A DNA stretch of 64,000 nt from Promethearchaeota archaeon (GTDB lineage: Archaea; Asgardarchaeota; Lokiarchaeia; Sigyniarchaeales; SOKP01). The position numbers and the translations under genes were made by a program. The notes beneath the pieces are model-generated. The model saw nothing but the letters and a program-made list of their open reading frames with translations. It made no database searches and was not told where the DNA came from. Shown piece after piece: positions 12,630-43,765 of the stretch (position 1 is the stretch's first letter; each line of letters begins with the position of its first letter). The stretch is taken from positions 3,966 through 67,965 of the forward strand of contig JAGXNS010000001.1 in NCBI GenBank assembly GCA_019894855.1. The letters are read 5' to 3'.

Positions 12630-13775
12630 TTAAGCGCTCAAAAGAGCTTTGGCATTCGTTTGCCATTCGTTAATCATTTTAGAAGAGATTCCGCTGATTT
12701 TGGAAGCAAGTTGTTCGGGATCAGAATCTAATAAAGCTTCAACTGATGTAATACCGCTTTTAGCGAGATTTTTTGCTGTTCCGTCCCCGATGCCTTTAAC
12801 GTCTACTAAAGCATATTCTTCTGAATCAACAGTATTATCACATCTTTCGAGTTCTTGAACTTCTTCTTCATATAACGCTTCTACTTCGAAATTTAACCCC
12901 TTTGCTTCGGGAACTTCTCCTTTCTCGGTGTCGGCAATACCTACACTTGTAATAAAGAACTCCGCTTCTTCTGGTGGTAGATCAGGGGCGTCTACTATAA
13001 TCGCTCTTCGTTTTAATGAGCTATTGGAAGAAAATCCCTTAGTTTTGAACATTACGCGAAAATGGCAGCCGTGAGCGACGATATTACCTCCAATGGCGTC
13101 GTTCGCAGAGAACATACCCATAATCTTAGTCGAGACTTGATTCGTAAGTAAAACAGCGCAATTGTAAGTTTCTGCAACTCGCGAGAGCGCGTGGATCATG
13201 TTGTTGAGAACGCCTTGTCGACGGGCTAACATGCCAATACCAACGTATTCACTCCTTAACAAAGCCATTAAGCTGTCTACTACGATGAGTCGTACGTTTC
13301 TCGTCTTACATAAGGTCTCTGCTTTTTGAATCATCTGAGATTGGTGATCAGAACTGTATATCCTTGCGTGAAATATTTGTGAAAGAACCTTTTTTGGATC
13401 AAGTTCAAATCTCTTGGCGATTCTTTTGATCTTTTCTTTAGCAAATGTGTTTTCAGTGTCAATGTAAGCTACTGCAGAACCTAAGCCTCCCTTTTTTCTT
13501 GGAAGTTGGATTGTCACAGCAATCGTGTGAGCTAAATTTGTTTTTCCGCTTTTAAACGGACCATATACCTCGGTGAGTTTTCCTGTTTGGAATCCACCGC
13601 CCAATATTCTGTTTAGCTCAGAAGAACCAGTAGTAATGTACTCGGTGTTTTCATCTATTTCTTCTGCTGTTATGAACTCGGTCATACCTAACGCATTTCT
13701 GGCATTCCAAATCAATTTCTTCGCTGTCTTATCTCCTAGTCCATCTATCTCCGATATGATGTTATGTGGAGACAT
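12630..13775 (-). CDS. radA: RadA recombinase with extra C-terminal (HhH)2 domain (N-terminus probably extends to about 13865)
   Basis: Walker A GPFKSGKT. YIDTENTF, LIVVDSLMALLRSEY, LLTNQV and IGGNIVAH align block by block with archaeal RadA. See findings for both termini. Confidence 0.9.
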   Translation of the reverse strand: MSPHNIISEIDGLGDKTAKKLIWNARNALGMTEFITAEEIDENTEYITTGSSELNRILGGGFQTGKLTEVYGPFKSGKTNLAHTIAVTIQLPRKKGGLGSAVAYIDTENTFAKEKIKRIAKRFELDPKKVLSQIFHARIYSSDHQSQMIQKAETLCKTRNVRLIVVDSLMALLRSEYVGIGMLARRQGVLNNMIHALSRVAETYNCAVLLTNQVSTKIMGMFSANDAIGGNIVAHGCHFRVMFKTKGFSSNSSLKRRAIIVDAPDLPPEEAEFFITSVGIADTEKGEVPEAKGLNFEVEALYEEEVQELERCDNTVDSEEYALVDVKGIGDGTAKNLAKSGITSVEALLDSDPEQLASKISGISSKMINEWQTNAKALLSA

Positions 13776-22363: not shown

Positions 22364-25327
22364 ATGAAATGGAAAAACCCCCGAGTTTTAGTTAGTGTTG
22401 TTTTAATTGTAGTTTTAGTTTATTTATCTGCAATAAGTATAAAATCTGTTGCATATTCTAATGAAGGACAAAACGAGAATTTCGACCTGTTGGGAACCTC
22501 TGATATCTCGAACTTAGAGATTTTGCAGTCAGTTTTTGAAGCAAAGAACGCTGATTACAATACTTACGGCTATTACCCTCAGATTTACTCTGATTCTCTT
22601 CAGGCGACTTATTACGCGCTATACATCTTAGAGGCTATAGGGAAATTGGGCGATATTGACCAACAAGCGGTAACTGACTACATTTTGTCTTTTTACAACT
22701 CCAGTTCCCATATTTTCTCGGACGAAAACGCTCAAAGATACTTCGCTTCAAAAATTCCGGGGAGATATTATCCTTTGTCAACGCTTTTACAAGTTAATTG
22801 CTACGCGGTGCTTTCACTGGAAATCTTGAATAGCATCAATTTAATAAACATTGTTGATATGATAACCTTTATTTGGGATTGTTATCACCCTAACCTTCAC
22901 GGATTTATAGGTCAACCTTATGATAACTCTTTAGAAGAAGGATTTAAAATTCCTACTGCAGACAATACTTATTTCGGAGTCATTACTTTAGATACTTTAG
23001 GTGTTGACTGGAACTCACATGCTCTGGAACGAGATGATATTGTATCCTACATTGACAGCCTGCAATCTTTGAGTTCATCTACTGGCTTTTACAACGATAA
23101 CGAGGGCATGTTCGACTCCTTAAAGGAGCCAGAACCTAACCAATTTGCTTCTTATTATTGCGTTAAAACGTTAGAGACCTTTGGAAGTAGTTATGTAGAT
23201 GTAATAGATAAAAACAAATTTTATCAACACCTAACAGCGCTTTATCATCCTCAAGAAGGATATTTTGACCTCTCGGATAGCGCAATGATCAACTATTCCA
23301 ACGTGGTAGCAACTGCTATGAGCTTAGAACTGGCAGATATAACCGAGTTTGTTAATTTTGAGAAAAACGATGTTTTAACCTTTATATTTAAGAATCGAAA
23401 CCATCGTGGGGGGTGGGTAGGTTCCAGTTCAATCTCCTTTCAGGAATTGCTTGACACATTCCAAATAATAAGGTCGCTTTCGAACACGGGAGATATTGCA
23501 GTTTTAACTTTAAGCGATAGAGACGAAATTTCTTCGTTCATATCTCTATTTGTTCAAGAACATGGATATTCCTTACTTTCAGACGATTATGCGTCTGTAG
23601 ACTTAATATATACTATTGTTTCGTCATTCGATCATTTTGATAAAATCGGCGAACTCGATATTCAAGAGGTATATGATCTTTTGTGTGGAACTGTTGTAGA
23701 TTACGGTACGAAGTACAATATCTTTTCTTGCACCGGTTTAGATTTAAGTTTGGTAAAGTTTCGTTCCAAGCCTTTCGATTATTTTACTACCGGATACCAC
23801 GATTATGTTGAAGACATTAACTCCCTCGTCTCCCACGAAACAACGTTTAAAATACTCAATACCTTAGATAAGATATTCAAATTAAACGATTTTGCCTCGA
23901 TTATTGACCTAAATCGGGTATTGCAGGATGTAATTAATTCCCAATTCCTTGATCCGTCCTATACCGATAATTTTGGGGCTTTTTTGGTCCAGAATATATT
24001 GTCATCTTCCGAGTGGAAAAACGATCTGGTCTACCTGAAGTATTCTTACTACGCTATACAGACGATGGAAACTATTAGCCAATATTTAGGATTAGGGGAC
24101 ATCACGAGTCAGTATTTCGCTGATTTGGGATTCGACAAATCCGCGCTTGGAACATACATTACGAGAAACATAGTTGAAACTCCAATCGAGGTATTCTTTG
24201 ATGCTAAATACTCAGATAACGTAGAGTTAGCATTAGAGAATTTGTATTACACGATACACATTTTAAACGCTATTGATCAATTCAGTTTGGATATAACTAA
24301 AATTAGTAATTTCGTAGTAAACCACCTTAACTATTCGAACATAGAAAATCTTTATTATTCCTACAAAATTTCGGAATATTTGGATTTGAATATTAATTTC
24401 AATGTTGAGCAAACCCATTTGCTTGTTCAAAATATATACTCTGAAACATACAATGAATTTTACACGACCGTTGAGAGAAAAGAGCTGGATCACGATGTGT
24501 TCTTGTGGTTGTGTGAAATCGCAAAAACTGACGATGTAAGATTGAGCGTTTCTTATTATGATACTATCGGATTAGGAAGTAACAACTTGTTTACGGTCGA
24601 ATTGGTAAACCTCATCCTATCGGATTTTGGACAATATACTACGGTTAAACTCGAGTCGGTACATTTAGGAACTATCGTATTGGATCAATTGGGGAACTAT
24701 ACCTATCAAAAGGAAGTATATGTGCCTATTGATACAGCTAATTTTCCGATTGTGGAAGGAGAGTTATGCGTATACGACGGCGCTATAAAAAAGGGAAGCG
24801 TTCCTTTCTCTTTTACCACCGAATTTAATTCTCAGTTTACATATTCAATAGTAAAGACCGAATCTCGGATTGAAGTTAACATCTATGCAAACCACGAGTT
24901 TATTTCTGGAGACGAACCGATCTTCGGTGGCTTGATGTACGCCAATGTGTATCGAAGCGGTAATCAAGTTGATATTATGGACCTGATTACTTCTCACAAC
25001 TTAGATAGCTCGACATTTACCTTCGATTATTCACCAATTTATTTCGGAAACTATTCGTTTGAATTCTACCTTAACGATCCTTATCACTCCGATCCCCAGT
25101 TAATCTGTTACGCTACATTTGACTACGAAGATCCTAACACTAATCCTGATCCCGACCCAAATCCTGATCCTGACCCCGATGACGATCCTAATAACCTATA
25201 CCAAGGAGACGCTGCCGTGACCATTCCTTTAGCGCTGGGGATGGTAGGCGCCGCTACGATACCCTTATTTGGTACTTATAAAGCGGTTCGTTCGAAAAAA
25301 TTCAAAAATAAGCAACTATCAAAATAG
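22364..25327 (+). CDS. large surface protein with repeated alpha/alpha-toroid (prenyltransferase/terpene-cyclase-like) motifs
   Basis: N-terminal anchor VLVSVVLIVVLVYLSAISI. Ten or more repeats of the type QATYYALYILEAIGKL / ASYYCVKTLETFG / YSYYAIQTMETI. Asp/Pro/Asn linker, C-terminal TM and basic tail. Confidence 0.55.
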   Translation: MKWKNPRVLVSVVLIVVLVYLSAISIKSVAYSNEGQNENFDLLGTSDISNLEILQSVFEAKNADYNTYGYYPQIYSDSLQATYYALYILEAIGKLGDIDQQAVTDYILSFYNSSSHIFSDENAQRYFASKIPGRYYPLSTLLQVNCYAVLSLEILNSINLINIVDMITFIWDCYHPNLHGFIGQPYDNSLEEGFKIPTADNTYFGVITLDTLGVDWNSHALERDDIVSYIDSLQSLSSSTGFYNDNEGMFDSLKEPEPNQFASYYCVKTLETFGSSYVDVIDKNKFYQHLTALYHPQEGYFDLSDSAMINYSNVVATAMSLELADITEFVNFEKNDVLTFIFKNRNHRGGWVGSSSISFQELLDTFQIIRSLSNTGDIAVLTLSDRDEISSFISLFVQEHGYSLLSDDYASVDLIYTIVSSFDHFDKIGELDIQEVYDLLCGTVVDYGTKYNIFSCTGLDLSLVKFRSKPFDYFTTGYHDYVEDINSLVSHETTFKILNTLDKIFKLNDFASIIDLNRVLQDVINSQFLDPSYTDNFGAFLVQNILSSSEWKNDLVYLKYSYYAIQTMETISQYLGLGDITSQYFADLGFDKSALGTYITRNIVETPIEVFFDAKYSDNVELALENLYYTIHILNAIDQFSLDITKISNFVVNHLNYSNIENLYYSYKISEYLDLNINFNVEQTHLLVQNIYSETYNEFYTTVERKELDHDVFLWLCEIAKTDDVRLSVSYYDTIGLGSNNLFTVELVNLILSDFGQYTTVKLESVHLGTIVLDQLGNYTYQKEVYVPIDTANFPIVEGELCVYDGAIKKGSVPFSFTTEFNSQFTYSIVKTESRIEVNIYANHEFISGDEPIFGGLMYANVYRSGNQVDIMDLITSHNLDSSTFTFDYSPIYFGNYSFEFYLNDPYHSDPQLICYATFDYEDPNTNPDPDPNPDPDPDDDPNNLYQGDAAVTIPLALGMVGAATIPLFGTYKAVRSKKFKNKQLSK
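25135..25195 (+). repeat. in-frame low-complexity Pro-Asp/Asn coding repeat
   Basis: It encodes NTNPDPDPNPDPDPDDDPNN through reiterated CCT/CCC-GAT/GAC/AAT codons. It is a stalk-like linker before the C-terminal anchor. Confidence 0.8.
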
Positions 25328-28744: not shown

Positions 28745-29005
28745 CTATTTTACTCCGATTTTTAAAACTCTTATAGCGTCTGCAAACTCTTGTCTCATAA
28801 TGGTTTGATAGAGTGGGTATCGTTTCTCAAACGGTATTTTTTCGTAGCCAGCATATACATCTGGAACGTGTGAATCCCCCATTACTTCTGAGAAAGGGAC
28901 TATAATTTTCGATAACACCGACTTGAAGTTATCGTAGTTCCTTATTTCAATTATGATTGGTCCATGTTCTTCTTTTTTACTCGCTTCTAAACCCATTGTT
29001 CTCAC
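28745..29005 (-). CDS. small protein, PFSE/IPF family member 1
   Basis: IIVPFSEVMGDSHVPDVYAGYEKIPFEKRYPLYQTIMRQEF matches four other ORFs in the window. Confidence 0.6.
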   Translation of the reverse strand: MRTMGLEASKKEEHGPIIIEIRNYDNFKSVLSKIIVPFSEVMGDSHVPDVYAGYEKIPFEKRYPLYQTIMRQEFADAIRVLKIGVK

Positions 29006-29057: not shown

Positions 29058-29345
29058 TTAGAATTCAGAATTATTCTTGTTTACTTCTTTCAGGTAAAGC
29101 TTCATGAAAAACCGTTGTCGCTTCAAATATCCTTTGATTCGCTCTGAATTCATATCGGGGTCGTTTTTAATTAGGTTTTGAATAAACTTGAGCGCCTCTA
29201 AATTCTGTTCTTTGGTTTTATCGAATTGTTTTATCATGTAATTGTCTTGCCCACCTTCAGATTCCAAATAGACCAAGAACTCCGTTATTCTCACTTTCTT
29301 TTTGTCGTGGATGGCAAATGGATCGTTCTTGGTCTCAGAATCCAT
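29058..29345 (-). CDS. hypothetical small protein
   Basis: 95-aa ORF between family members 1 and 2 on the same strand. Confidence 0.4.
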   Translation of the reverse strand: MDSETKNDPFAIHDKKKVRITEFLVYLESEGGQDNYMIKQFDKTKEQNLEALKFIQNLIKNDPDMNSERIKGYLKRQRFFMKLYLKEVNKNNSEF

Positions 29346-29491: not shown

Positions 29492-29737
29492 TTAACAAGA
29501 ATTATTCGATGATTCACCAATTTGCTCAATAAATTCATTTAATAAAATTTCTTTAAATTTCGGGTGTCTTACTTTGAATGGCATTTCTTCCAATCCATTA
29601 TATAAATATGATTTTTTTTTGGAATTTCCAAACTCGGAGAATGGTATTATAATATTATTGAAATTAACAAACTCCTCCTCATAGGATTCATTAATATGAA
29701 CAAAACGTAACTTTCTTTCTACTGAATGTGAACTCAT
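29492..29737 (-). CDS. small protein, PFSE/IPF family member 2
   Basis: IIIPFSEFGNSKKKSYLYNGLEEMPFKVRHPKFKEILLNEF. Confidence 0.6.
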   Translation of the reverse strand: MSSHSVERKLRFVHINESYEEEFVNFNNIIIPFSEFGNSKKKSYLYNGLEEMPFKVRHPKFKEILLNEFIEQIGESSNNSC

Positions 29738-29993: not shown

Positions 29994-32579
29994 TTAATTT
30001 TCCTTTTTTATTATTTTTTTACATAGATTAATTCCTAAGCCCGTTTTTCGATTTAATACGTAAGGATTTTCTTTTTTTACCTGAGTAGCGGTGTGGTATC
30101 CCGCGTTGTATAATATCCTCGCTCTTACTCTTGCCACATTGTCTAATCTTAAGACCAAATCAAATAATTCTTCGCTAATTCCGTAATGCACTCGAATTTT
30201 AAGCGTTTCGGCCATTTCCGCTACTCCAACCATGGCTTCAGCGATGTCTGGATCGGACTCACTTAAATGGACCGCGATAATACCAATGAAAGTTATAATC
30301 CGTTCTAAATTGTCCTTAGTGGTATAAAGATCGCCTGCCATTATCTTGTGTCGCTCCAAAATGTCGTCAATTGGCTCTTCGTCGCACCACTCCAAGATAG
30401 GTTGGAGTATTTTGTAGTTTCTAACCCTTAATTCTGCCTTGAGCACCTCGTAGGCTTCTTTTACGATGTCTTGATATGTTTCTATCGCTGCATTTTCGAG
30501 CTTGTACCTTATTAAAACTCCTGAAACTGGATAAAGATACAATCGGATAATGAGCTTTCCGAACTGCGAGCATTTTATGGTTCCATCGTCTTGTTTGATG
30601 ATTAACCCTTTTTCGAACAAGTAATTAAGCACATATTGGTTCTTTACCGACTTAGGAACAATGTCTTCTACGTATTTCTGGAAGTTCTGGTCGGGGATGC
30701 CGATTAGGTGTAGTAAAAACGTAGTGACGTGCTCACAAAAGTCAAAAGAGAATTGATTGTCGTCGTAGCTGTTGGATATCCCGTTTTCAAACCCACACGA
30801 GCATCGTATCCCTACATCGATATCGAATTCCGCAAAAAATACTCCAAAATCGGTTTTAATGTAGCCCGATATGTTAGACTTAGTTAATTTGGTTATCTTA
30901 ATCTGGTGGTGGCGACTGGACAAGTTATCGACTTTTTTAGGGTTGGAATGAAGTTTTAGGATGTTAACCGGAGTAATTTCTTTAATCATCAAGAGTTGAT
31001 CGATGGGAATCTGCCGCCGTTCCATTTTATTTTTGATGCCATACCAAAAATAAGTTTTCTCGAAGAACTCTTTTAATTTATCTAACGTGATAGTTTTTTC
31101 CTCGTAGATCCGCAGAAGCACTTGTTCTTTTAAAGTGTTAAGCTTATTAAGACCCGAAGTTAAATCGTTGTATTTAGGAGTATAAGTTTCAGATGGAAAA
31201 GAGTTCTGGAAGTAATGATCCTCGATCCAGTCCCGTTCGTCTATATTACTCGCTAGTAAATAGCCAAAACCTTCTGAGTCCAGTCCTGGTCTTCCTGCTC
31301 GACCGAGCATTTGAAAAACGGAATTGGCAGAGAACGGCATAAAATATGAGAATCCGTCTCCGTTCTCGTGAAAACCAGAAAAGTTTTTAATGTTGTGGCC
31401 TGAAGTCACATATCGTTTAAAATCTTTTACTATTACTACTCTGGCAGGCATGTTAAGACCGGCACTTAAAGTAGTGGTACAACAGATTATTTTAATTATT
31501 CGTTTTCGATAGGCGTCTTCAACGAGTTTTCTCTCTTTTGGAAGGAGTCCGGCGTGATGGAAAGCCACTCCACATTTAACAGCTTTTTTAAGTATTGCGT
31601 GCCTTCCTTTAATTTTACTGAGTTTTTCTTCCACTTTCTTGCATGCTTTCAGCTCAGCTTCGGAAATCTGTGCTTTAACCAAATTTTTTAGGTTTTGGGT
31701 CATTTGTTGGGTCGATTTTCTTTTGTTGAGGAATACTAATATTTGTCCATTGTTTTCTAAAGTAGCTTTTACGAGTTTTTTGATGGTTGAGTCTTTGTTT
31801 TGTGTAATTTTTATTCTATAGTGTAAAGGAACCGGTCGTTCGTCAGAAATTATTAGCTTAGTATCGTTGCCGAGAGAAGAAAGCCAAGAATTAAAAAATT
31901 CAGGATTTTTAATGGTAGCTGAGAGCCCTATTATCTGTGGTTGGTGTAGAAACTCGTTTAACCTCACGATAAGCGATTCCAACCTCGGTCCACGACTTGA
32001 CTCGCCGATGATATGTATCTCGTCTATAATGATAGTCGAAATATCAAATATCCACTCCTTATCGCTAAAGTTCCGCAAGATTGAGTCCATTTTCTCGTAT
32101 GTCGTAACTATTAAATCTGCTTTTGCTAAACGAGAATCGTCCACATCGTAATCACCTATCGATAACTCGGTTTTAACACCGAACCGTTCGTAGGATTTTT
32201 TGAAATGAACATATTTTTCAGTGGCAAGCGCTTTGTAAGGCACTAAGTAGATTGACTTACCAAATTTTTGAAAGATGTTGTTTAATGCAGACACTTCTCC
32301 TATCAAAGTCTTACCACTTCCCGAGGGCGCACAGACCATAAACGACTTTCGAAAGAACAACCCTTTTTGAATCGCTTCTTTCTGAATTTGCCGGAGCTTA
32401 AAAATTTTTTGCTCGAACAATACTCGAAGGATGCGCTCGTCTTGAATGAATTGAAATATTTCATCTTCCTTTCTTTCTTCATCTGTTGTATTTTTAGAAT
32501 TGCTATAATTAGTAAGAGACATATCCCGTGGTTTTTCTGCAAAAAGCTGTGTTGTTGATTCCCATAACAGTTTTTGCAC
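29994..32579 (-). CDS. Hel308/Ski2-like DNA helicase with an inserted SWIM-type zinc finger
   Basis: APSGSGKT (I), IIDEIH (II), SAT (III) and MLGRAGRPG (VI). C-terminal HhH-like RARILYNAGYHTATQV. CSC-x21-CEH insertion. Confidence 0.85.
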   Translation of the reverse strand: MQKLLWESTTQLFAEKPRDMSLTNYSNSKNTTDEERKEDEIFQFIQDERILRVLFEQKIFKLRQIQKEAIQKGLFFRKSFMVCAPSGSGKTLIGEVSALNNIFQKFGKSIYLVPYKALATEKYVHFKKSYERFGVKTELSIGDYDVDDSRLAKADLIVTTYEKMDSILRNFSDKEWIFDISTIIIDEIHIIGESSRGPRLESLIVRLNEFLHQPQIIGLSATIKNPEFFNSWLSSLGNDTKLIISDERPVPLHYRIKITQNKDSTIKKLVKATLENNGQILVFLNKRKSTQQMTQNLKNLVKAQISEAELKACKKVEEKLSKIKGRHAILKKAVKCGVAFHHAGLLPKERKLVEDAYRKRIIKIICCTTTLSAGLNMPARVVIVKDFKRYVTSGHNIKNFSGFHENGDGFSYFMPFSANSVFQMLGRAGRPGLDSEGFGYLLASNIDERDWIEDHYFQNSFPSETYTPKYNDLTSGLNKLNTLKEQVLLRIYEEKTITLDKLKEFFEKTYFWYGIKNKMERRQIPIDQLLMIKEITPVNILKLHSNPKKVDNLSSRHHQIKITKLTKSNISGYIKTDFGVFFAEFDIDVGIRCSCGFENGISNSYDDNQFSFDFCEHVTTFLLHLIGIPDQNFQKYVEDIVPKSVKNQYVLNYLFEKGLIIKQDDGTIKCSQFGKLIIRLYLYPVSGVLIRYKLENAAIETYQDIVKEAYEVLKAELRVRNYKILQPILEWCDEEPIDDILERHKIMAGDLYTTKDNLERIITFIGIIAVHLSESDPDIAEAMVGVAEMAETLKIRVHYGISEELFDLVLRLDNVARVRARILYNAGYHTATQVKKENPYVLNRKTGLGINLCKKIIKKEN

Positions 32580-32673
32580 TCGATCAAATATAAAGGAAAA
32601 ATCAAATTACCTTAACTCAATAAGAACTTTTTTTTCTTTATTAATGCTCGAATTTTCTTAGAAGAGATTATTT

Positions 32674-34539
32674 ATGACGGATGTATATGGAACCCACGAA
32701 AATATAATCAATAACCTTTCCAGGGACGATCTAACTAAGATCAAAGGGATTGGAACGACAACTTCCGAAAAATTATACAACGCTAAAATCGTAAGGATAC
32801 AACAAATAGCAGAGATGACGCCCGAAAAGTTATCGAAAACTCCTGGAATTGGATTAGCTTCGGCTACAAAGTTTATTGCCGCAGCTAAACTTTATTTAAG
32901 TGGTTCCCAAACAGGTGGAATTGCAAAAAATTCTCCACAAATTGTCCCCTCAATAAAGGACGAATTAACACCAGAACTTATTGAAAAATACGAAGTTACA
33001 GAAGTCGTCGTAGAAGAAATCGAAGAAATCAGTGATGAATCCCTAAAAGAAGTTAATGTAGATTTCGGACGCTCGCAATCTAATCAAAAATGGTTTTCCG
33101 ACAAGTTCAATTACTCGAGATTAACTGCATCTTACCATCCTATTTCAAAACGGACTAAAAATCCTAAAGATACCGTTGAAGAAGAATATGCCCTCATTGA
33201 AAACAAACAAAAAGACTATATGAGTATACCCGCTGAATATGAAGAAAACTCTATGCAAGAAACCATTCCTGAAGTAAATTTTAGACAGGATCAACCAGAC
33301 CTAAAAAATGTTATAGAAGATAAAGAGGTCGATTACACCCTAGTAGAACCAAATATTATCGATTTCGAGAATTCCAGAGAAAAATCTTTTGAGAGTAATA
33401 TTCACCAACAGATTAGCAACATGTTTAAGGATGTAGGTTGCTACGAAATACCGCGGTCGTTAGAATCGTTAAATCAGTTTACTACAAACCTAGATTATCT
33501 CGGGTGTAAGTTAGTAAAAGCTTCAGACAACCTTAAGTTTCTGTTTCTATTTCCTGTGAAATGGCTCGACGAAGAGGGAACGGTGTTAGTTGACGAGATC
33601 AAACTCGAATTAAAGTCGCACACGAAAAAAAACAATCTTGAAGCTTACAACAACCTAGAGCACATCAACCAGAACTTATTACAAGCCAGGGATTCGATGT
33701 ATGAAGATTTAGTTAATAACCAAAATATTCGCGAATTTTTCCAAAAATACTTACAAGTTACCCTTTCTTTAGAGAGAGGGTTCGGAAGCAAGAGTTTGTT
33801 TTTTCTTTCTGGATCTTCTCAGTACAAAGTCGTTATCGAACCTATCTTACTTTGTAACAATCCTCCCCGAAGTATGGAAAAAACGCTTGCTTTCCCGTAC
33901 CAAAGAAGCACGAACCTTCACGCTGTTACCAGACTCGACTTAGCTCCTTTGATAAAATTTTTAGAAAAGAAATATCAAATGATCGAGAAGAGAACGAAAA
34001 AAACAAACTTGGTTAAAGATTTTAGACAATCGGAAGAGAAACTTCGCACTAGAGTGAGAGCGACGTCCCTTCCGATTTTCGGGTACTCAGTAGCGCTCTT
34101 TATTATATATTTCGCAGAGTTGTATTTCTTACTGCGCTTGCTTAACACCATCGGGTTAGCCGTAGTAGGGATTTACATCTCTTTAGTAACACTTTTTTAT
34201 TTCAATTTTTACCGGAACAAAAAGCGATTCGCAGTTCAATTCGAAACTCCTTATTACCTGCAGAACTTAGAATTTAGCGAGATTGATTTACTTGATTTTA
34301 AGGAAGAACTCACAGATGAGTTGCTAACTCAATTTGGCTACGAATGCTTAGGGAAAAACGCTAGATTCGGAGTTATTGAGCAAAGTGAAGCAAACACATT
34401 AAAAAACAACTTAGAGGTTAAACGAATGGAACCAGAATTCCAAAATATGTTCGAACCTGAGCAAGTAAAAGCTGAAACCGTTAGTAATTCAACAACAAAA
34501 TACGGGAGCAAATACTCGTCGTTTTTAGACGACCCATAA
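32674..34539 (+). CDS. membrane protein with an N-terminal (HhH)2 DNA-binding-type domain
   Basis: LTKIKGIGTTTSEKLYNAKIVRIQQIAEMTPEKLSKTPGIGLASATKFIAAAKL forms two helix-hairpin-helix motifs. An acidic linker follows, with a TM hairpin near aa 470-520. Confidence 0.6.
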   Translation: MTDVYGTHENIINNLSRDDLTKIKGIGTTTSEKLYNAKIVRIQQIAEMTPEKLSKTPGIGLASATKFIAAAKLYLSGSQTGGIAKNSPQIVPSIKDELTPELIEKYEVTEVVVEEIEEISDESLKEVNVDFGRSQSNQKWFSDKFNYSRLTASYHPISKRTKNPKDTVEEEYALIENKQKDYMSIPAEYEENSMQETIPEVNFRQDQPDLKNVIEDKEVDYTLVEPNIIDFENSREKSFESNIHQQISNMFKDVGCYEIPRSLESLNQFTTNLDYLGCKLVKASDNLKFLFLFPVKWLDEEGTVLVDEIKLELKSHTKKNNLEAYNNLEHINQNLLQARDSMYEDLVNNQNIREFFQKYLQVTLSLERGFGSKSLFFLSGSSQYKVVIEPILLCNNPPRSMEKTLAFPYQRSTNLHAVTRLDLAPLIKFLEKKYQMIEKRTKKTNLVKDFRQSEEKLRTRVRATSLPIFGYSVALFIIYFAELYFLLRLLNTIGLAVVGIYISLVTLFYFNFYRNKKRFAVQFETPYYLQNLEFSEIDLLDFKEELTDELLTQFGYECLGKNARFGVIEQSEANTLKNNLEVKRMEPEFQNMFEPEQVKAETVSNSTTKYGSKYSSFLDDP

Positions 34540-34587
34540 ATTTTTTTCTTTATAAATTCTCATCGATTTTGGGCTCTATAAGTAAAA

Positions 34588-35361
34588 ATGAATAGAGTTT
34601 TATGTGACATGTCGATAAATATCAAGTCAGGATATAAAATAATTTTTATAATTGGTCTTATCTTTAGCTTCGCTTCGGTGTTTTTAGATTGGTATTACAT
34701 CCAAGGAGTGCTTGATAATAGCGGAGAGCCCATTATGTCGTGGATTTACAACACTTTATTTGGCTGGAGCACTTTATTTACGGAAGCGAATATGTTTAAC
34801 GAATCTTACAGACCACAAAACGCTACTATGCCCGTTGTCATAGTGATGGTTCTTATTGCTTTAGTCTTCCTTTCAGCATATTCAACGCTTTTTCACGATG
34901 TAGAAAAAGGAGGCAACCTGTTAAAAGTAAAGAGGTTTGGCTTTATTACGATTTCGTTAGTTACTCTAATTGGATTTTTCGTGTTGGTGTTCCCTTTATT
35001 TTTTTTATTACCAAACGATCTATATTATCCTTTTATGGTCTATTACGATTATGAATTAGAACTCACGCTTTCTTATTCGATGGGCCCTGGATATTGGTTT
35101 CAGGTGATCGCTTTCGGATGTACATTTCCGTATGCGTTGTTCAACCAGTCGGTAATAAGTACTTTTGAAAAAGAACAGTATGCTCCAGCGGAAGTTATAA
35201 AAACATATATTGAAAATGTGAAGGAACAATTTGATTTAGATAAATTAATTGCTCAAGAAGAATTGGAAATTGAATCCACTCAATTACAGCGGAAAATTGA
35301 TCCTAAGAACGAAGTAGAGCAAATTTACGAAGACTTTTTAGCTACGAGGGGGAGAAAGTGA
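34588..35361 (+). CDS. polytopic membrane protein
   Basis: Four or five hydrophobic helices and an acidic coiled C-terminal tail. Its stop overlaps the next GTG start (GTGA). Confidence 0.55.
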   Translation: MNRVLCDMSINIKSGYKIIFIIGLIFSFASVFLDWYYIQGVLDNSGEPIMSWIYNTLFGWSTLFTEANMFNESYRPQNATMPVVIVMVLIALVFLSAYSTLFHDVEKGGNLLKVKRFGFITISLVTLIGFFVLVFPLFFLLPNDLYYPFMVYYDYELELTLSYSMGPGYWFQVIAFGCTFPYALFNQSVISTFEKEQYAPAEVIKTYIENVKEQFDLDKLIAQEELEIESTQLQRKIDPKNEVEQIYEDFLATRGRK

Positions 35362-36212
35362 GCGAGCGGTTGCTTGATGTTAAGTTAAAGCGACTGATCC
35401 AGCTCTGTAAGGAAACAGGCAACTATAAAAAGCTAGCCGTGGTAAGCTTTGTGCTCGTAAGCAACACAGTTGACGAAATAGGGATAAAATTAGGCATGCG
35501 AACGAGAGAGAAGGACTCGGGCGAAAATATTTTTGAATACATGAAACTCGTAAATAAAATTTTTGCCTTTAATTTCAATGTAATGGTGTTTAAACCAGAA
35601 CTTATAGAGAAATTGTCTCAAATCGAGCTTTTATTTTTGAAACGACAGGGGGATATAAATCTTGAGCAGGTGAAAAGCGTGATTGAAGCGTATTACGAGC
35701 TTCGGAAGCTAGAAGTCCCAAATTTACACGAAAATATTAATTCAGAAGTTTTGAACCGAAATCGTACGGTATCGATGTTTTCTTTTCTTTCAGGTGGTCA
35801 ATCTAAAAGACGAAAAAGTGAAAATACGCTTAACCCAATGTTAATGCAAAGATTCAAAGACGAGGAAAAAGCGCTTCAAATACAGCTCGAACAAAAATTC
35901 GATAAAAACGCTTTCGAAAAGATTTTACACTTGAAAACTGTACGGAAGAATTTGGAGCAAAAATCGAGGGGAAAGATCGTAATATCGGGGGCTTTAAAGG
36001 ACAATATATCGTATCGTCAATCAAAAGAAAACATTGGACAGTTAATGATCTTCAGCTTAATTATATTATTTGCCATGATTGGGGCGGTGCTATTAGTGGA
36101 ATCTTTTATGTATGGTGTTTTATCGATGTCTATTAGCAATACAACCCTCATTTGTTTTGGTGTTATTGTAATCTTAATTTTTATTAACAAATTGTATTAT
36201 GGAAAAAGGTGA
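35358..36212 (+). CDS. hypothetical protein with C-terminal TM hairpin
   Basis: GTG 35358 is preceded by GAGGGGGAGAAA. Soluble helical N-terminal part, two C-terminal TM helices. Confidence 0.55.
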   Translation: MSERLLDVKLKRLIQLCKETGNYKKLAVVSFVLVSNTVDEIGIKLGMRTREKDSGENIFEYMKLVNKIFAFNFNVMVFKPELIEKLSQIELLFLKRQGDINLEQVKSVIEAYYELRKLEVPNLHENINSEVLNRNRTVSMFSFLSGGQSKRRKSENTLNPMLMQRFKDEEKALQIQLEQKFDKNAFEKILHLKTVRKNLEQKSRGKIVISGALKDNISYRQSKENIGQLMIFSLIILFAMIGAVLLVESFMYGVLSMSISNTTLICFGVIVILIFINKLYYGKR

Positions 36213-36220
36213 AATAAAAA

Positions 36221-39200
36221 TTGGTAAAATCTTATGGAGAATTTTTAAGCGAAGACAATAATCAGAATAGGAATTGGAAAGAAAAGAACGAGAGTGGGAT
36301 AGAAACTGATAAGAATACGGATGAAGACCCCTTTTATAGCGTCTGGAATTCTTTTCCTTCCTATAAGGATATAGATAGTACCGACACGCTCAAAAAAGCG
36401 ATCTCGTTAGTGGTAATTGAATTTGTCTTGTTCGCTTCGCTTTTGCTAACAACGGTGGATTTTTTGCTCTCAATCAGCGCAACCGTAATAGTTGGAATAA
36501 GTTTTGTGCTCGTTTTTCGTAAAAATTTCTTTACTTTGCACCACTTTTTGGAGTTTGGAGCGTTTAACCCCTTTCAAAATTTCATATTCTGGCAGACCGA
36601 CTACGATAAGTCGGTGTTTTATTATACAAATCGCAGAGATATGATAACTACTGGCGTTAGTATTTTAAAAATTGGAGTGATGGCCGAAAATGTGTCAGCA
36701 AATCTACTTACATTTATCAAAGGATTACACAAAAATCGCACTCCGTATACCTTTCAAGTCATTCACAAACCGCTTCAGATAAGCAACAGTAAAGGTTACG
36801 ACAAAGCCTCGACTTTTGAGACCGTTATTTTATTTTCCACCTATTTTAAAATAAACGGGAAGATCAATAAATCAAAGTTAACTAAGTTAGTAAAAGAGCT
36901 TCGGCTAAGCACAACTGCACTAAAAACTGGGATTACTTCAAACTTTCACCATTTTAAAATATCATCCCTGACCGAGGATCAGTTAGTTGAGACGTTTCGA
37001 AGCACAGTTTTAAAACGAGATGTTCCAATAGAGTCCGATTCGAAAAGAGTTACTTGTAAAACCGTGCGCCCTAAATTAAGCGCTTCCGTTGCAAAATCGA
37101 TTTATATCGTTGCGTTAGTAGTAGTATTAGATTTATCGCTATTGTTTTTCAATTTACCTTTACTTTATAGGTTTTTACTCAATATCGGAATAATTGTTTT
37201 CTTATTATTGGTGTGGTGGCAGGAACTGTTCTTTCAGTTGTCAAAAGGTAAACTTTTCAGATCTAAGGAGATTAGGGTAATTGATCCTTTTAATAATATA
37301 GAATTTTTCAAGTCTAGAAAAACGCCTGAAATCATTTTTTACCAGATAGAAGGAAAAACCACAGGAGGGATTAAAATGGCAAACCTCTATTTTTGTAGTC
37401 CACCACCATATTGTAATCCCGATAAGTTTTACGAATCTCTAATTAAAGAAGGGATGCCATTTACGCTTACCTTCCAGTTAGGACCCTTAAATTTCGAAAA
37501 ATTCGACGAAGAAGGATTTGAATATTTAACAGAAAGAGAAAAATTTTACTTGTTAAAACGCAGAAAGATTCCTGTACAACGTGATAATTGGCTCAGACAA
37601 AAGGCAGGTATCTGGAGCGCGATTGCTACTTATTCTACTTCGGTAGTATCTAACGCGTCCTCACTCACATACGAAACTACGGACAAAATCGAAAGACGGT
37701 TGGTACAGCAATTCGCAGTTTTAAAAGCTGCTTTCGGGAACAATTTTATGAATTATATGATAAAACCGTTGAGGAACAATCTACTGGAATCAGGATTAAT
37801 ATTTGAAACCCTCAAGAACAAATTTTTCAGAAGGAACGGTACGCATCTTAATTATTTGCTGTTTCAAGGGAAAACCTTAAAATTTTTGACCACGATTTCG
37901 AATCAATTTAAAAAGGGAGTAGAAACGCAGTTAGCAGCAGAGTTCAATACCCCCTTGCAGCTTAAAAACGAAATTATTGTTGGCTCCACTATTAATACAG
38001 AATATTTAGAAACCGAGGTGCCTGCCGGGTTTTTATTTGACCAAGTGCGTAATTTAATCGTCACAAACGGTACAAACTCTAGTAGAGAATTCCTAACGCA
38101 AAAGATCGTGATAGAGTTAGTTAAATCAGGCTATCCTTCAGTAGTGTTCGATTTTACGGGTAATTGGTCGAAGATTATAAAAATATTTCAAGGCTCCATA
38201 TACGAAAATCATTTTATCTACCACAAACTAGGAAAAACTATCGTGATCAACCCGCTTCGTTCGGAGATACCTTACGATAAAAACAATCCTGCCTATTTAG
38301 ACTATATGTTTGATGCGTACGCGATGTGTTTTAAGAAAGACGAGCGGACCATCGAGACTTTTAAAAACACCATTCTTCGAAACCCCGACATTGATGTATC
38401 GACTTTGGTCTTAGATTTAACTTCCCAACGAGACTGGGAGAAATCTTCGGTCACTGATACGTTATTATCCTTTTTTAAGGAGTTTACTCCCCAAGAGTCT
38501 TCGTTTATTCAACGTCAACAACCCCAAACACTACACTCTGCGCAAGCGCACGAGTTCATAACTAACGACAAAACGGTGATTATAGACCTCTCAGATGTAA
38601 GAGATTACGACAAACAGTGCTATTTTGCTTTTGTTGTATTGTCTAAAATGATTCATTACTTGAAAATTGGAGAAGCATTTACTCCAAAATTTATTGTAAT
38701 ACCACACATTGATGTAGTTTTTGATGGTTTTTTCTTAGATAAGAAAATTCAATACGGCAAGATCGATAAGTTCTTTTCCCCATTTGTCAATAAAGGCTTT
38801 GGAACCTTAATTTCTGCATCGCAAATAAGGTATTTACACCCTAACGTGTTTAATTACTTCAATAACATGATAACTTTTCGAACATCTGATAAAAGAGATG
38901 TGGCGGTGCTCAACGGACAAATGAATTTAGAGAACCTACACGGAGTCGGCTACTACAGCAGTCGGAGGAACGAAGGTTATCAGACGAGATATATCGGAGC
39001 GATGAAACAAAACGAGGCGGTGGTGAAACGAGAGGACATATACCAATCTTTCCCCGTGCAATTTGACTTCGAAGAATTACAGCTCGCAAAACCTCTATCG
39101 TGGGAGGAGATCGTGAGCTACATGGAAAAACAAGGCTACGATTTAGAAAAAACCAAGAATAAAATTATGAAAAGGGCACAGACTACCTTGTTCGAAAGCG

Positions 39201-39994
39201 ATTTTGCCGGCTATAGCGATTTAATTGGAGGCGTCATTAAATTTTTAAACAATATCCAAGCGGTTGATAAAGTAGGGAACTTGTATAAGAAAAAAGTAAG
39301 AGAAGAACTCAAAAAAATACTTAAGCCTTACATTGCAAGGATTACCAAGGATAAGAAGAGAGAGAAACAGATAATTGACGATGTATTTGATATTTTGGTA
39401 AGCAAACAATATTTAACAGAAAGTCATCCTCGAAGAGCTAGCGGTTCGGAATCCATGCAGACTTCTTTTGCGGTCGGACCTCATTACCAAAGAGTTTTAA
39501 AAGATTATTACGATTCCCGAGAAAGTTCGATAATCACCTGTGAACCAGTGGAACTTGAATCCACGCAACTTCCTGAAACAGAAACACTGAATCCTATTAA
39601 ACTCAGAAGTGCCCTCTCTAAACATTTTGCTCCTATTCTATATTACGAATATTTTACCATGCATAAAAACTTAAACGTCAAAAAATATGAGAATGTGATA
39701 AAGACTAGTAGAGATTTATTCCCTAAATTTTTACACAGCGTTTACAAAGAATATTACAGCGTGAATTATGCAATAACTTCAGAAGATATTGGGAAATTTA
39801 TTGAAAATTTCGGCAAAGTAGAAGGTTTTCCGTTTACAGCGGATGATCTAAAACTATTTCTAACTTCTTGCGAAAAGATAGACGTAAGTGACAAGACGGA
39901 AGTAGTCGAAATCTGCAAAAATACCTTCGAAATGTATTCCACGATATTTGATGGCTTCAGACAATACATCGAAGGTGATTGGGGGGGTATCTAA
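36221..39994 (+). CDS. large membrane protein with FtsK/HerA/VirB4-like ATPase-fold region (P-loop apparently degenerate)
   Basis: TTG 36221 is preceded by AAGGTGA. There are two TM-hairpin plus soluble-module repeats. After these, in order, come NLIVTNGTNSSREF...VVFDFTGNW, TVIIDLSDV, KFIVIPHID and GTLISASQIRYLHPNVFNYFNNMITFRTSD. This is the block order of DUF87/VirB4-type ATPases. Confidence 0.45.
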   Translation: MVKSYGEFLSEDNNQNRNWKEKNESGIETDKNTDEDPFYSVWNSFPSYKDIDSTDTLKKAISLVVIEFVLFASLLLTTVDFLLSISATVIVGISFVLVFRKNFFTLHHFLEFGAFNPFQNFIFWQTDYDKSVFYYTNRRDMITTGVSILKIGVMAENVSANLLTFIKGLHKNRTPYTFQVIHKPLQISNSKGYDKASTFETVILFSTYFKINGKINKSKLTKLVKELRLSTTALKTGITSNFHHFKISSLTEDQLVETFRSTVLKRDVPIESDSKRVTCKTVRPKLSASVAKSIYIVALVVVLDLSLLFFNLPLLYRFLLNIGIIVFLLLVWWQELFFQLSKGKLFRSKEIRVIDPFNNIEFFKSRKTPEIIFYQIEGKTTGGIKMANLYFCSPPPYCNPDKFYESLIKEGMPFTLTFQLGPLNFEKFDEEGFEYLTEREKFYLLKRRKIPVQRDNWLRQKAGIWSAIATYSTSVVSNASSLTYETTDKIERRLVQQFAVLKAAFGNNFMNYMIKPLRNNLLESGLIFETLKNKFFRRNGTHLNYLLFQGKTLKFLTTISNQFKKGVETQLAAEFNTPLQLKNEIIVGSTINTEYLETEVPAGFLFDQVRNLIVTNGTNSSREFLTQKIVIELVKSGYPSVVFDFTGNWSKIIKIFQGSIYENHFIYHKLGKTIVINPLRSEIPYDKNNPAYLDYMFDAYAMCFKKDERTIETFKNTILRNPDIDVSTLVLDLTSQRDWEKSSVTDTLLSFFKEFTPQESSFIQRQQPQTLHSAQAHEFITNDKTVIIDLSDVRDYDKQCYFAFVVLSKMIHYLKIGEAFTPKFIVIPHIDVVFDGFFLDKKIQYGKIDKFFSPFVNKGFGTLISASQIRYLHPNVFNYFNNMITFRTSDKRDVAVLNGQMNLENLHGVGYYSSRRNEGYQTRYIGAMKQNEAVVKREDIYQSFPVQFDFEELQLAKPLSWEEIVSYMEKQGYDLEKTKNKIMKRAQTTLFESDFAGYSDLIGGVIKFLNNIQAVDKVGNLYKKKVREELKKILKPYIARITKDKKREKQIIDDVFDILVSKQYLTESHPRRASGSESMQTSFAVGPHYQRVLKDYYDSRESSIITCEPVELESTQLPETETLNPIKLRSALSKHFAPILYYEYFTMHKNLNVKKYENVIKTSRDLFPKFLHSVYKEYYSVNYAITSEDIGKFIENFGKVEGFPFTADDLKLFLTSCEKIDVSDKTEVVEICKNTFEMYSTIFDGFRQYIEGDWGGI

Positions 39995-40383
39995 TGGCAA
40001 AGAGTCAAGAGTTAGCGAACTTTGAGCAAGTAGTAGAAAAAATTATCTTTAACGATAATGAATTAGAAGAGCTCAAGATTGCGATAAGAAACTTTACCGA
40101 AGGAAAAACCAGTGAAAAAGAGTTAAAGCATCTGATACTTCAATTTCGAGGTCGAATGGTCGAAGAAATAACGGATTTTGGCTTTTTCTTTGCGGAAAAG
40201 AGGACTCAAAACTTGATGCAAACCGAAATAAACAAAAAGCCGCCTTTTTCAACGACCAAAGGAGAATCTCAACTAAGAAAGGAAATCAAAGAGAAAAACG
40301 AACTTTTGGAGAATGTGGCTATACGTGTAAATCAGTTGGTATCCAATCTTAAAAAGGAAGATTCGCAAGGGGATTTATTATAG
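39994..40383 (+). CDS. small coiled-coil protein, last gene of the operon
   Basis: ATG 39994 overlaps the TAA of the previous gene (TAATG) and follows GAAGGTGATTGGGGGGG. Lys/Glu-rich helical sequence. Confidence 0.5.
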   Translation: MAKSQELANFEQVVEKIIFNDNELEELKIAIRNFTEGKTSEKELKHLILQFRGRMVEEITDFGFFFAEKRTQNLMQTEINKKPPFSTTKGESQLRKEIKEKNELLENVAIRVNQLVSNLKKEDSQGDLL

Positions 40384-42946: not shown

Positions 42947-43765
42947 CTATCTTTTATTAATTAGGTGTTGATAAATAACACTCATATAACGGTAATTTTT
43001 TTTTGATACTACTTTAAGATAATTCAATATGTTAAATAATAAATTTAATCCATACTTATCACCGTAAATACTTATTATTAAGTAAAGCATTTTTTGATTT
43101 CGACTCATTTTTTTAATTTTTTTAATTTCTGTTTCAATTACGCTATACTTATTTAAAAATTGTGTAATTTCAGTCAAGCAGGATTTTCTAACGTTATCGT
43201 CGTAAAAACTGGCTAGGTTAAATCCCATATTTTTAAATGTTTTAATTTTTAGAGAAGGGATAAAAGACGGAATAAAACTTTTTTTAGTTAAAGACCTATG
43301 ATAGAACTGGAATCCTGATTTAGAGTTTTTTAATTCGTAATTATTTGCAAAATGAACGGGATAAACTGGGCTATTGAAAGTTTTAGTCATATTAATGTAA
43401 TATACGCGCCCACGATATATCATGTGACACCATTTTTCAAAACCTAATATCCTTACGTTATCTTCAATTTTGGGGTAGCGTTCGAACGAACTACCGTTGA
43501 ATACCCACAACACAAAACAATTATTCTCGTTGTATTCTTTAGTCCGTTGTATTAAATCCTTGACAAGTATCATTGAGTGTTGTATTTCTACAACTATTTT
43601 TTTACCATTACTTAATTTACAATAAACATCAGCAATTCGGTCGCCGATAGGATATTCTTTCTTTATAACATCAATTTTGTTATCAAACGGAAGGAAGGAG
43701 TAGAAATGTTCTTTTATTCTAAGATGTTCAAATGACTCCGCTTCGTTTTTTTTAGGTATTATCAT
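42947..43765 (-). CDS. CoiA-like PD-(D/E)xK nuclease-fold protein
   Basis: GDRIADVYCKLSNGKKIVVEIQHSMILVKDLIQRTKEYNENNCFVLWVF matches the D...E-x-Q-x-S core of competence-protein CoiA-like nucleases. Confidence 0.5.
   Translation of the reverse strand: MIIPKKNEAESFEHLRIKEHFYSFLPFDNKIDVIKKEYPIGDRIADVYCKLSNGKKIVVEIQHSMILVKDLIQRTKEYNENNCFVLWVFNGSSFERYPKIEDNVRILGFEKWCHMIYRGRVYYINMTKTFNSPVYPVHFANNYELKNSKSGFQFYHRSLTKKSFIPSFIPSLKIKTFKNMGFNLASFYDDNVRKSCLTEITQFLNKYSVIETEIKKIKKMSRNQKMLYLIISIYGDKYGLNLLFNILNYLKVVSKKNYRYMSVIYQHLINKR

Follow-up and report, generated by a model that had tools for sequence, protein, structure and literature searches.

Organization and conservation of the g1 to g5 operon

The stretch of DNA analyzed here (the window, 64,000 nucleotides of contig JAGXNS010000001.1 from a Promethearchaeota archaeon) carries at 32674-40383 on the plus strand five co-directional open reading frames (ORFs), designated g1 to g5, which fill this interval. 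An earlier note on the window had described these ORFs as an operon with short or overlapping junctions, a ribosome-binding site before each downstream start, and transmembrane (TM) segments in four of the five products. The ORFs and junctions were found to be as described: (i) g1 and g2 are separated by 48 nucleotides (nt) and g3 and g4 by 8 nt; and (ii) g2 and g3 overlap by 4 nt (GTGA), and g4 and g5 by 1 nt (TAATG). The start codon of g4 is TTG and that of g5 is the ATG at 39994, with the proposed starts backed by the conserved N-termini of orthologues (MTDVY.., MVKSYG.., and MA.SQE..). Shine-Dalgarno-like GGTGA/GGGGG motifs were detected upstream of g3, g4, and g5 and none before g2, such that the statement on ribosome-binding sites held for the former three genes and failed for g2. 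A hydropathy scan placed TM segments in g1, g2, g3, and g4, in agreement with the note, and none in g5. The region between g1 and the divergent gene upstream, with its TTTATTAA box, may act as a promoter.

The operon was next considered in terms of its conservation, for which 53 fetched loci were scanned with hidden Markov models of the five proteins, and a locus in which g3 abuts g4 was defined as type 1. Among the type-1 loci, g2 was present in all 30, g1 in 26 of 27, and g5 in 27 of the 28 with downstream sequence. The g1 to g5 order was found to recur in about 30 independent Asgard loci, down to approximately 35% identity in g4, so that the co-conservation check proposed in the note came out in its favor; a chance run of ORFs was rejected on the same grounds. 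As judged from gene order and junctions, g1 to g5 are strictly co-inherited and translationally coupled. Where present, the type-1 operon is usually a single copy in its assembly, and its place in the chromosome is conserved; two or three such loci were obtained from a few metagenome-assembled genomes (MAGs). Homologues of g4, g1, and g3 either bore Asgard-type names (MAGs of Lokiarchaeota, Promethearchaeota, Hermodarchaeota, Thorarchaeota, and Hodarchaeota) or were metagenome sequences, where the Promethearchaeati of NCBI are equivalent to the Asgard group. By these matches, the g4 family is found in Asgard-type archaea alone across every collection searched.

The GC content of the window is low throughout (about 0.30-0.38), and the operon has the same composition as its flanks. 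The wider neighborhood, which includes genes for a Hef-like helicase, DUF1922, and ThiF, is syntenic, and the locus was therefore regarded as native to the chromosome. Relatives of g4 were found neither on viral contigs (IMG/VR pattern scan) nor on plasmids (PLSDB tblastn with g4). The composition, the conserved flanks, and the lack of virus or plasmid relatives in these searches argue for a native chromosomal gene set, and a mobile element was rejected in view of the native GC and conserved flanks. When all five proteins were searched against Pfam, NCBIfam, PADLOC, and PHROGs, the sole accepted match was HHH_5 in g1; DUF2207_C, Lin-15B, STALD, and phrog_4956 appeared as sub-threshold noise, and PADLOC gave no meaningful match for the operon proteins. 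Consistent with the statement in the note that pilin, relaxase, and integrase genes are lacking here, family searches found none. Searches of the literature on Asgard HerA/P-loop proteins, VirB4, and type IV secretion or conjugation yielded no description of this system, which is thus, as far as searched, undescribed.

Fold and catalytic motifs of g4

The largest product, g4, had been read in the note as a membrane-associated HerA/VirB4-type translocase ATPase. On its own, g4 had no match in Pfam, NCBIfam, or the PDB (phmmer), and an orthologue-only profile (A1) likewise found no match in the PDB. An AlphaFold2 (AF2) model, for which 54 sequences were used, covered aa 1-1200 and was of moderate confidence (mean predicted local distance difference test, pLDDT, 62.7; predicted template modeling score 0.42), with good blocks at aa 113-265, 350-530, 618-835, and 950-1100. 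When this model was compared with the PDB by Foldseek, the best match was TrwK/VirB4 of R388 (8rtd_P, E=4.6e-14, approximately 955 aligned columns), with further VirB4 matches to 7o43, 7o42, 7o41, and 8rtb. These were followed by HerA (4d2i, E=7e-7; also 9x1m), TrwB/VirD4 (1gki, E=1e-5), TdpA, and SIR2-HerA. The 457-residue chain 8rtd_h was matched less strongly (E=2e-7) than the full-length 8rtd_P; the extra aligned length would correspond to the N-terminal domain (NTD), such that the modeled g4 appears to have the two-part architecture of an NTD and a RecA-like C-terminal domain (CTD).

A relationship at the level of sequence was detected after a profile search of 1.84 billion representative proteins retrieved 235 g4 relatives, of which distant ones were added to build a diverse family profile (A10). 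Against the PDB, A10 matched HerA (8xau_A, E=3.2e-10; 9c1m, 4e-9; 8ziq, 2e-8; 4d2i, 2e-3; also 8j4u, 8wiv, and 9x1l), with an alignment that covers the IIDLS block, the Walker B position, the 'ASQ' sensor, and the FR(T/A)xDxxD block. Invariant in alignment A1 were the Gly after strand 2 (FDFTG, G647) and the Asp after strand 5 (D890 and D893), which are synapomorphies of the HerA clade (bioRxiv 10.1101/2024.09.27.615246). Because of the Foldseek matches to VirB4 and HerA and the sequence matches between A10 and HerA, a P-loop NTPase-class fold is considered present in this 1257-aa protein, as the note had supposed. These comparisons establish g4 as a diverged member of the FtsK-HerA superfamily whose fold is closest to VirB4 and whose sequence motifs are closest to the HerA clade. 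The VirB4 profile matches for which the note had proposed a search did not materialize for g4 or its relatives: g4 and 24 plus 22 relatives were without a Pfam or NCBIfam match to the VirB4, CagE, or TrbE families, and VirB4 chains were not among the PDB matches of the g4 family profile search.

The N-terminal half of g4 was found to contain four TM segments arranged as two hairpins (about aa 60-100 and 293-340, by hydropathy), each followed by an alpha/beta domain. Alignment of aa 55-292 with aa 288-535 by hhalign (Prob 97%, E=1e-10, 210 columns) identifies this half, by profile comparison, as a tandem duplication of a [TM hairpin + alpha/beta domain] module; shorter members of the family (about 770-850 aa) have one such module. 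In an all-against-all hhalign comparison of g1, g2, g3, g5, and the g4 sub-domains, this internal duplication was the sole relationship detected. Toward the C-terminus, the helix-strand-strand pattern of the AF2 model at aa ~1040-1100 suggests a winged helix, with weak support from HTH_34 and PadR matches in distant members and a MarR match.

While the fold class named in the note stood, the ATPase motifs did not. At the position of the P-loop, which precedes the HerA-type 'FDFTG' strand 2, g4 reads NGTNSSRE, with Arg in place of the Walker lysine and Glu in place of Ser/Thr. The hhhhEEAH block of HerA aligns with FIVIPHID of g4 ('EEAH' with 'IPHID'), such that the acidic pair of Walker B is replaced. 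Among the g4-family members of at least 700 aa (n=147), none had GxxxxGK[ST] anywhere in its sequence. The loop was found to drift between subfamilies (NGTWENTQ, NGKFIQQQ, GGTVEQRF, AGDNHRQN, and others), while the motifs AAEFNTP, NTE, YS..R...YQ, and KR.D...PFPV were invariant or nearly so across the family. Drift of the loop together with retention of the other motifs reads as the pattern of a pseudo-enzyme kept for a structural role, and g4 itself reads as a pseudo-ATPase scaffold without motor function.

Partner proteins, the divergent helicase, and type-2 loci

The first product of the operon, g1, had been noted to bear a helix-hairpin-helix (HhH)2 module, and this assignment was borne out by HHH_5 at aa 18-72 (E=5.5e-9; 36.8 bits versus a Pfam gathering cut-off of 27), which was kept above the cut-off in nine of ten diverse orthologues. 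RadA N-terminal HhH models match the module as well, and a weak match of g1 to TIGR01259 comEA was also seen (E=0.07). Such modules are classically non-specific binders of double-stranded DNA (dsDNA). The HhH head is followed by a long, acidic, low-complexity linker that is poorly conserved apart from one short motif, WFSDKFNYSRLTASYPPIS, and then by a conserved alpha/beta domain, a TM hairpin, and a C-terminal region of conserved helices that ends in KY..KYSSFL[ED]D. No N-terminal hydrophobic segment was found in g1, and the TM hairpin (aa 463-510) lies between two K/R-rich segments; therefore, the N-terminus and its HhH head are predicted to be cytoplasmic. A Zc3h12a/NYN nuclease domain was detected in two of the ten diverse orthologues, L001 (L001:4308-6821) and L029 (L029:6044-8395), where it separates the HhH head from the conserved central domain (E=3e-15 and 2e-17). 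The g1 orthologue of another locus, L002, is shortened to 408 aa and has no HhH; about 8 kb downstream, a separate protein of 115 aa carries HHH_5. For the central and C-terminal part of g1 (aa 236-621), an AF2 model of pLDDT 70.8 gave only weak matches to nucleotidyltransferase folds in the PDB by Foldseek (cGAS, OAS, and MiD51; E>=0.05, non-significant) and no match in BFVD. A PD-(D/E)xK motif had been suspected in the central domain (D300...E308-x-K310); no nuclease fold was among the model matches, and the domain was left without a fold assignment.

The products of g2, g3, and g5 were without detected relatives outside their own families. In the polytopic g2, the short loops are rich in Trp and Tyr and the C-terminal tail is charged; the protein shares 36-66% identity with its orthologues (alignment A5) and had no match in Pfam, NCBIfam, PADLOC, or PHROGs; the side of the membrane on which its tail lies is uncertain and depends on the weak fourth TM segment. 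In the first predicted outward loop (aa 70-80), two N-x-S/T sequons were observed, NES and NAT, of which the second is kept in three of four aligned orthologues; such an arrangement would fit a loop that is extracellular and possibly glycosylated. The g3 profile had no match in the PDB, and among its 314 homologues none had a Pfam domain, with all of the organism-named ones derived from Asgard-type MAGs. For g5, no family match was obtained other than sub-threshold matches to STALD and PADLOC models. When the positive-inside rule was applied to the sequences, the soluble domains of g1, g3, and g4 were predicted to be cytoplasmic, leaving short hairpin turns and the Trp/Tyr-rich loops of g2 as the only parts predicted to face outward.

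Divergently upstream of g1 lies the gene of a superfamily 2 (SF2) helicase, which the note had called Hel308-like. This identification was upheld by its Pfam domains and by its best PDB match, Hjm/Hel308 (2zj2, E=6e-86), with ASCC3, Slh1, and Brr2 close behind. The helicase was found in the same divergent position in 19 of the 20 type-1 loci for which 9 kb or more upstream was available. It carries a CxC(x20)CxH insertion (CSCGFENG...FCEH), a SWIM-type zinc-finger signature for which Pfam makes no call, and the CxC..CxH insertion is conserved in all 24 operon-linked orthologues. We consider this helicase a candidate motor or partner of the operon.

In addition to the type-1 operon, about 10 loci (type 2) were found to encode a g4 paralogue of 32-38% identity without g1 to g3, including L021, L026, L035, L038, L039, L040 (e.g., L040:9911-20618), and L044. 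The next genes in these loci encode a DUF87/HerA-like protein of ~650-690 aa and a 1350-1560-aa protein without a family match. The HerA-like protein has a canonical Walker A (G..G.GK[ST]) and, in four of the five examined, an hhhhDE Walker B. Comparison of g4 with these intact ATPases by hhalign was not significant, though the IDLS block was aligned. Some type-2 loci lie near leucine-rich repeat (LRR) and tetratricopeptide repeat (TPR) proteins and near a large protein that matches Argonaute-PAZ below threshold. In the cultured Asgard strain Ca. Lokiarchaeum ossiferum (L054, CP104013.1, 5621864-5645658), the only g4 homologue found was the distant UYP48509.1, which had no recognizable g1, g2, g3, or g5 beside it and is flanked by three SF2 helicases, Hef-like and Hel308-like ones among them, with a 358-aa TM-hairpin protein upstream.

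Table 1. Positions of the operon genes, their domains, and the adjoining helicase gene in the window
Feature	Size or residues	Coordinates	Strand	Description	Basis
g1	621 aa	32674..34539	+		HHH_5 match, alignment A3, TM scan, AF2 model
g1 N-terminal (HhH)2	aa 18-72	32725-32889	+		HHH_5
g1 conserved alpha/beta domain	aa ~245-440	33406-33993	+		Alignment A3
g1 TM hairpin	aa ~463-510	34060-34203	+	2 segments	TM scan
g2	257 aa	34588..35361	+	Polytopic; 3 clear TM + 1 weak	TM scan, alignment A5
g3	284 aa	35358..36212	+	~225-aa strongly conserved N-terminal soluble domain, then C-terminal TM hairpin	Alignments A6, A11
g4	1257 aa	36221..39994	+		Foldseek, family profile, hhalign
g4 [TM hairpin + alpha/beta domain] copy 1	aa 55-292	36383-37096	+		hhalign
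g4 [TM hairpin + alpha/beta domain] copy 2	aa 288-535	37082-37825	+		hhalign
g4 HerA/VirB4-class RecA-like domain	aa ~575-950	37943-39070	+		Foldseek, profile
g4 degenerate P-loop	aa 616-623, within annotated aa 615-623	38063-38089 (aa 615-623)	+	NGTNSSRE	Motif order
g4 degenerate Walker B	aa 824-832	38690-38716	+	FIVIPHIDV	Alignment with HerA
g4 probable winged helix	aa ~1040-1100	39338-39520	+		AF2 secondary-structure pattern, weak matches
g4 helical C-terminus	After winged helix		+		Layout
g5	129 aa	39994..40383	+	Soluble, no TM	Alignment A7
Hel308/Ski2-type SF2 helicase	861 aa	29994..32579	-		Pfam DEAD, Helicase_C, Helicase_dom4_arc; PDB matches
Helicase CxC..CxH insertion	aa 593-617	30729-30803	-	SWIM-type signature
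Divergent intergenic region	94 bp	32580..32673	.	Common to helicase gene and g1; AT-rich; TTTATTAA box ~30 nt upstream of g1 ATG	Read from sequence

Relationship to known systems, proposed role, and neighboring genes

The operon was compared with four known systems. VirB4/TrwK (8rtd, 7o43, 7o41) is the best structural match to g4 over nearly its whole length, including the NTD and RecA-like CTD, and both proteins are membrane-associated. The bipartite NTD of g4 also recalls the match of CedB and CedD to two parts of the VirB4 NTD (bioRxiv 10.1101/2024.09.27.615246). Unlike VirB4, g4 has neither the Walker A GxxGxGK[ST] nor the Walker B hhhhDE, its NTD is a tandem duplication with a TM hairpin for each copy, and a C-terminal winged helix and helical domain appear to have been added. 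Partners of the VirB2, B6, B8, or D4 type were not recognizable in the operon: family searches with g1, g2, g3, and g5 gave no match to VirB2, B3, B6, B8-type, or coupling proteins, and none of the four has five or more TM segments. HerA provides the only relationship of g4 that is detectable by sequence (A10 versus 8xau_A), with the clade synapomorphies kept; in contrast to HerA, g4 is by its motifs without a functional P-loop site, is anchored in the membrane, and is about twice the size, and no NurA, SIR2, or other nuclease partner is encoded in the operon.

The Ced and Ted systems are domesticated derivatives of the type IV secretion system (T4SS) in archaea (PMC9905601), and their defining parts are a VirB4-like AAA+ ATPase, a VirB6-like channel of 6-7 TM segments, and a VirB2-like pilin (PMC9905601; bioRxiv 10.1101/2024.09.27.615246). 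Similar to Ced/Ted, the operon combines an archaeal, chromosomal, domesticated VirB4/HerA-class protein with small membrane partners in a DNA-repair setting, and the type-2 loci resemble Ced (CedB + CedD) in pairing two members of the superfamily. The differences were that (i) no counterpart of the CedA/TedA channel was found, as g2, the sole polytopic protein, spans the membrane only 3-4 times and showed no similarity in the family searches; (ii) no small two-TM ORF comparable to the CedA1/TedC pilin was found, the hairpins belonging to proteins of 284-1257 aa with large soluble domains; (iii) g4 keeps the fold of CedB/TedB without the catalytic motifs; and (iv) the phyletic range is Asgard here versus Thermoproteota for Ced/Ted. 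The (HhH)2 module of g1 is membrane-tethered like that of ComEA, which holds its HhH outside the cytoplasm behind an N-terminal anchor, whereas g1 has no N-terminal signal or anchor and its TM hairpin lies about 460 aa downstream. Thus, the complex departs from what defines VirB4, HerA as an enzyme, Ced/Ted, and ComEA. In its working it most resembles the VirB4/HerA branch, from which Ced/Ted also arose and which is its probable ancestor.

We tentatively favor, at somewhat less than an even chance, a reading in which the operon encodes an Asgard-specific, largely cytoplasm-facing platform of the VirB4/HerA lineage that tethers or handles nucleic acid by use of a pseudo-ATPase scaffold. The structural statements (fold class, motif loss, duplication, HhH, and TM hairpins) are held with much higher confidence than this function. 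According to the favored reading, g1 to g5 would form one membrane complex restricted to Asgard archaea, in which g4, by analogy with its relatives, may form a ring-like oligomer that serves as a platform on the cytoplasmic side of the membrane. The role of g4 is taken to be that of a scaffold or adaptor because it is predicted to be unable to hydrolyze ATP, while g2, g3, and g5 would be structural subunits. The flexible HhH head of g1 and the winged helix of g4 may hold DNA (less likely RNA) at this platform, to which g1 in some lineages would also bring the NYN nuclease domain. An external motor is proposed because the pseudo-ATPase is paired with a live HerA-like ATPase in type 2 or has an SF2 helicase neighbor in type 1; energy would thus come from the intact HerA-like ATPase in the former and from the Hel308-type (CxC..CxH) helicase in the latter. 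In this way, nucleic acid may be tethered or processed on the cytoplasmic side of the membrane; one example would be the anchoring of the chromosome or DNA ends in connection with repair or recombination. Tethering or processing was preferred over transport across the envelope because the motor appears dead, channel and pilin candidates are not recognizable, and no extracellular mass is predicted.

VirB4/HerA-class proteins are the engines of conjugation, archaeal DNA import, and DNA-end resection, and the g4 family appears to have discarded the engine, kept the fold, duplicated the membrane anchor, and become fixed in an operon with a tethered, putatively DNA-binding protein, beside a specialized Hel308-type helicase. 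If DNA is indeed tethered or processed at the membrane by this complex, it would represent new Asgard cell biology that touches on chromosome organization, repair, or gene exchange in the lineage nearest to eukaryotes, as well as a clear case of a secretion-type ATPase that evolved into a pseudo-enzyme scaffold. Whatever the function, four uncharacterized, Asgard-restricted protein families (g2, g3, g4, and g5) and their genomic logic are defined by this work.

Several observations weigh against the favored reading. In the structure model of g4, the stretch that holds the P-loop position (aa 534-617) has a pLDDT below 50; therefore, the Walker A position is set by motif order and the helix and strand that follow rather than by confident structure. 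The Arg at the position of the Walker lysine and the adjacent Glu are invariant in close orthologues, and g4 could still bind some ligand at this site. The central domain of g1 gave non-significant fold matches only, and the biochemical functions given to the five proteins are predictions. With regard to the helicase, the whole neighborhood of about 15 kb is syntenic in these lineages, and its adjacency is therefore weaker evidence of a functional link. In addition, g1, g2, g3, and g5 were not detectable beside UYP48509.1 of L. ossiferum. The ligand is ambiguous between DNA and RNA, as NYN domains are typically RNases and the helicase also resembles Brr2, ASCC3, and Slh1.

Of the other explanations, a variant that we regard as unlikely is that the complex is a domesticated T4SS/Ced-type platform, with its ATPase inactivated and its anchoring module duplicated, which together with the dedicated helicase and the tethered HhH protein anchors or processes chromosomal DNA on the cytoplasmic side of the membrane. 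The closest prokaryotic relatives of eukaryotes would then have a membrane tether for the chromosome, or a repair station, specific to their lineage. It is likewise unlikely that the complex is a membrane scaffold with no link to nucleic acids, acting for example in membrane shaping or protrusion or in protein sorting or secretion, with the many TM hairpins bending or organizing the membrane and HhH and winged helix used for protein contacts. All TM elements of g1, g3, and g4 are hairpins, a geometry typical of membrane-shaping proteins; g4, having by its motifs lost catalysis, could be purely structural; and the family is Asgard-specific. Against such a scaffold stand HHH_5 above threshold in distant orthologues, the NYN nuclease fused to g1 in two lineages, and the association with SF2 helicases, which is conserved even around the distant L. 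ossiferum homologue; moreover, the structurally solved relatives of g4 act on DNA or in DNA-transfer machines.

The model taken from the note, an active DNA import or export machine of the Ced/Ted-like or conjugation-like type in which the g4 translocase drives DNA through a g1 to g3 channel, was considered quite unlikely. Its appeal lies in a VirB4-like fold over the full length of g4 whose TM anchoring, by hairpins that precede the NTD, resembles VirB3-VirB4 fusions, in polytopic and hairpin membrane partners within the operon, one of them (g1) with a DNA-binding HhH, and in a neighborhood rich in recombination and repair genes (Hef, Hel308-like, RadA-like, and a CoiA-type nuclease 2.5 kb downstream); Ced/Ted also provide a precedent for domesticated T4SS derivatives in archaea (PMC9905601). 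However, the 147 members all lack the lysine of Walker A and the acidic pair of Walker B, neither a VirB6/CedA-like protein of 6-7 TM segments nor a small VirB2/CedA1-like pilin (as defined in PMC9905601) is encoded, and Pfam gave no match to any T4SS family. The predicted cytoplasmic location of the g1, g3, and g4 soluble domains leaves no obvious extracellular apparatus, and the searches of plasmids and viral contigs found no relatives. A conduit was thus not supported, and an import or export machine was considered a weaker case than a nucleic-acid-handling scaffold that faces the cytoplasm.

An RNA substrate, with the complex as a membrane platform for RNA surveillance or processing that works with a Ski2/Brr2-like helicase, joined in some lineages by an NYN RNase, was judged very unlikely. 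Matches of the helicase to ASCC3, Slh1, and Brr2 are almost as good as that to Hel308, and NYN domains of the Zc3h12a type, as found in g1 of L001 and L029, are typically RNases; yet (HhH)2 modules are classically dsDNA binders, no PDB entry matches the helicase better than the DNA helicase Hjm/Hel308, and the neighboring conserved genes (Hef, CoiA-type nuclease, and RadA-like) are of the DNA repair or recombination type. Antiviral defense or mobile-element cargo with a membrane-anchored HerA-family component (compare SIR2-HerA, DUF4297-HerA, and TdpAB) is highly improbable, since defense-system HerA-family proteins among the matches (8j4u, 8sub, 8wod, 8wfd, 8xau) and the LRR/TPR and PAZ-like neighbors of type-2 loci are countered by the usually single type-1 copy at a conserved position with the same housekeeping flanks across deep divergence, GC equal to these flanks, no meaningful PADLOC match, no relatives in the viral-contig scan or plasmid search, and no recognizable effector domain in the operon version of the window.

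Other genes of the window were also inspected. A Rad51/RadA-family protein of 381 aa (12630-13775, minus strand) has its HhH at the C-terminus (aa 323-371) versus the N-terminus in canonical RadA. The nuclease-like protein downstream of the operon (42947-43765, minus strand) matches the competence protein CoiA family (E=1.7e-12), and a CoiA-type protein recurs downstream in a distant locus (L002:20063-20899). Between the DUF1922 gene and the helicase gene are three small ORFs on the minus strand (28745-29005, 29058-29345, and 29492-29737), of which the 86-aa and 81-aa products look like paralogues that share an I(I/V)PFSE ... G.E..PF..R.P motif; L004 has small genes of similar size at this position. 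Upstream of the Hef-like helicase, a 987-aa protein (22364-25327, plus strand) matched the prenyltransferase alpha-alpha toroid alone (E=1.2e-13).

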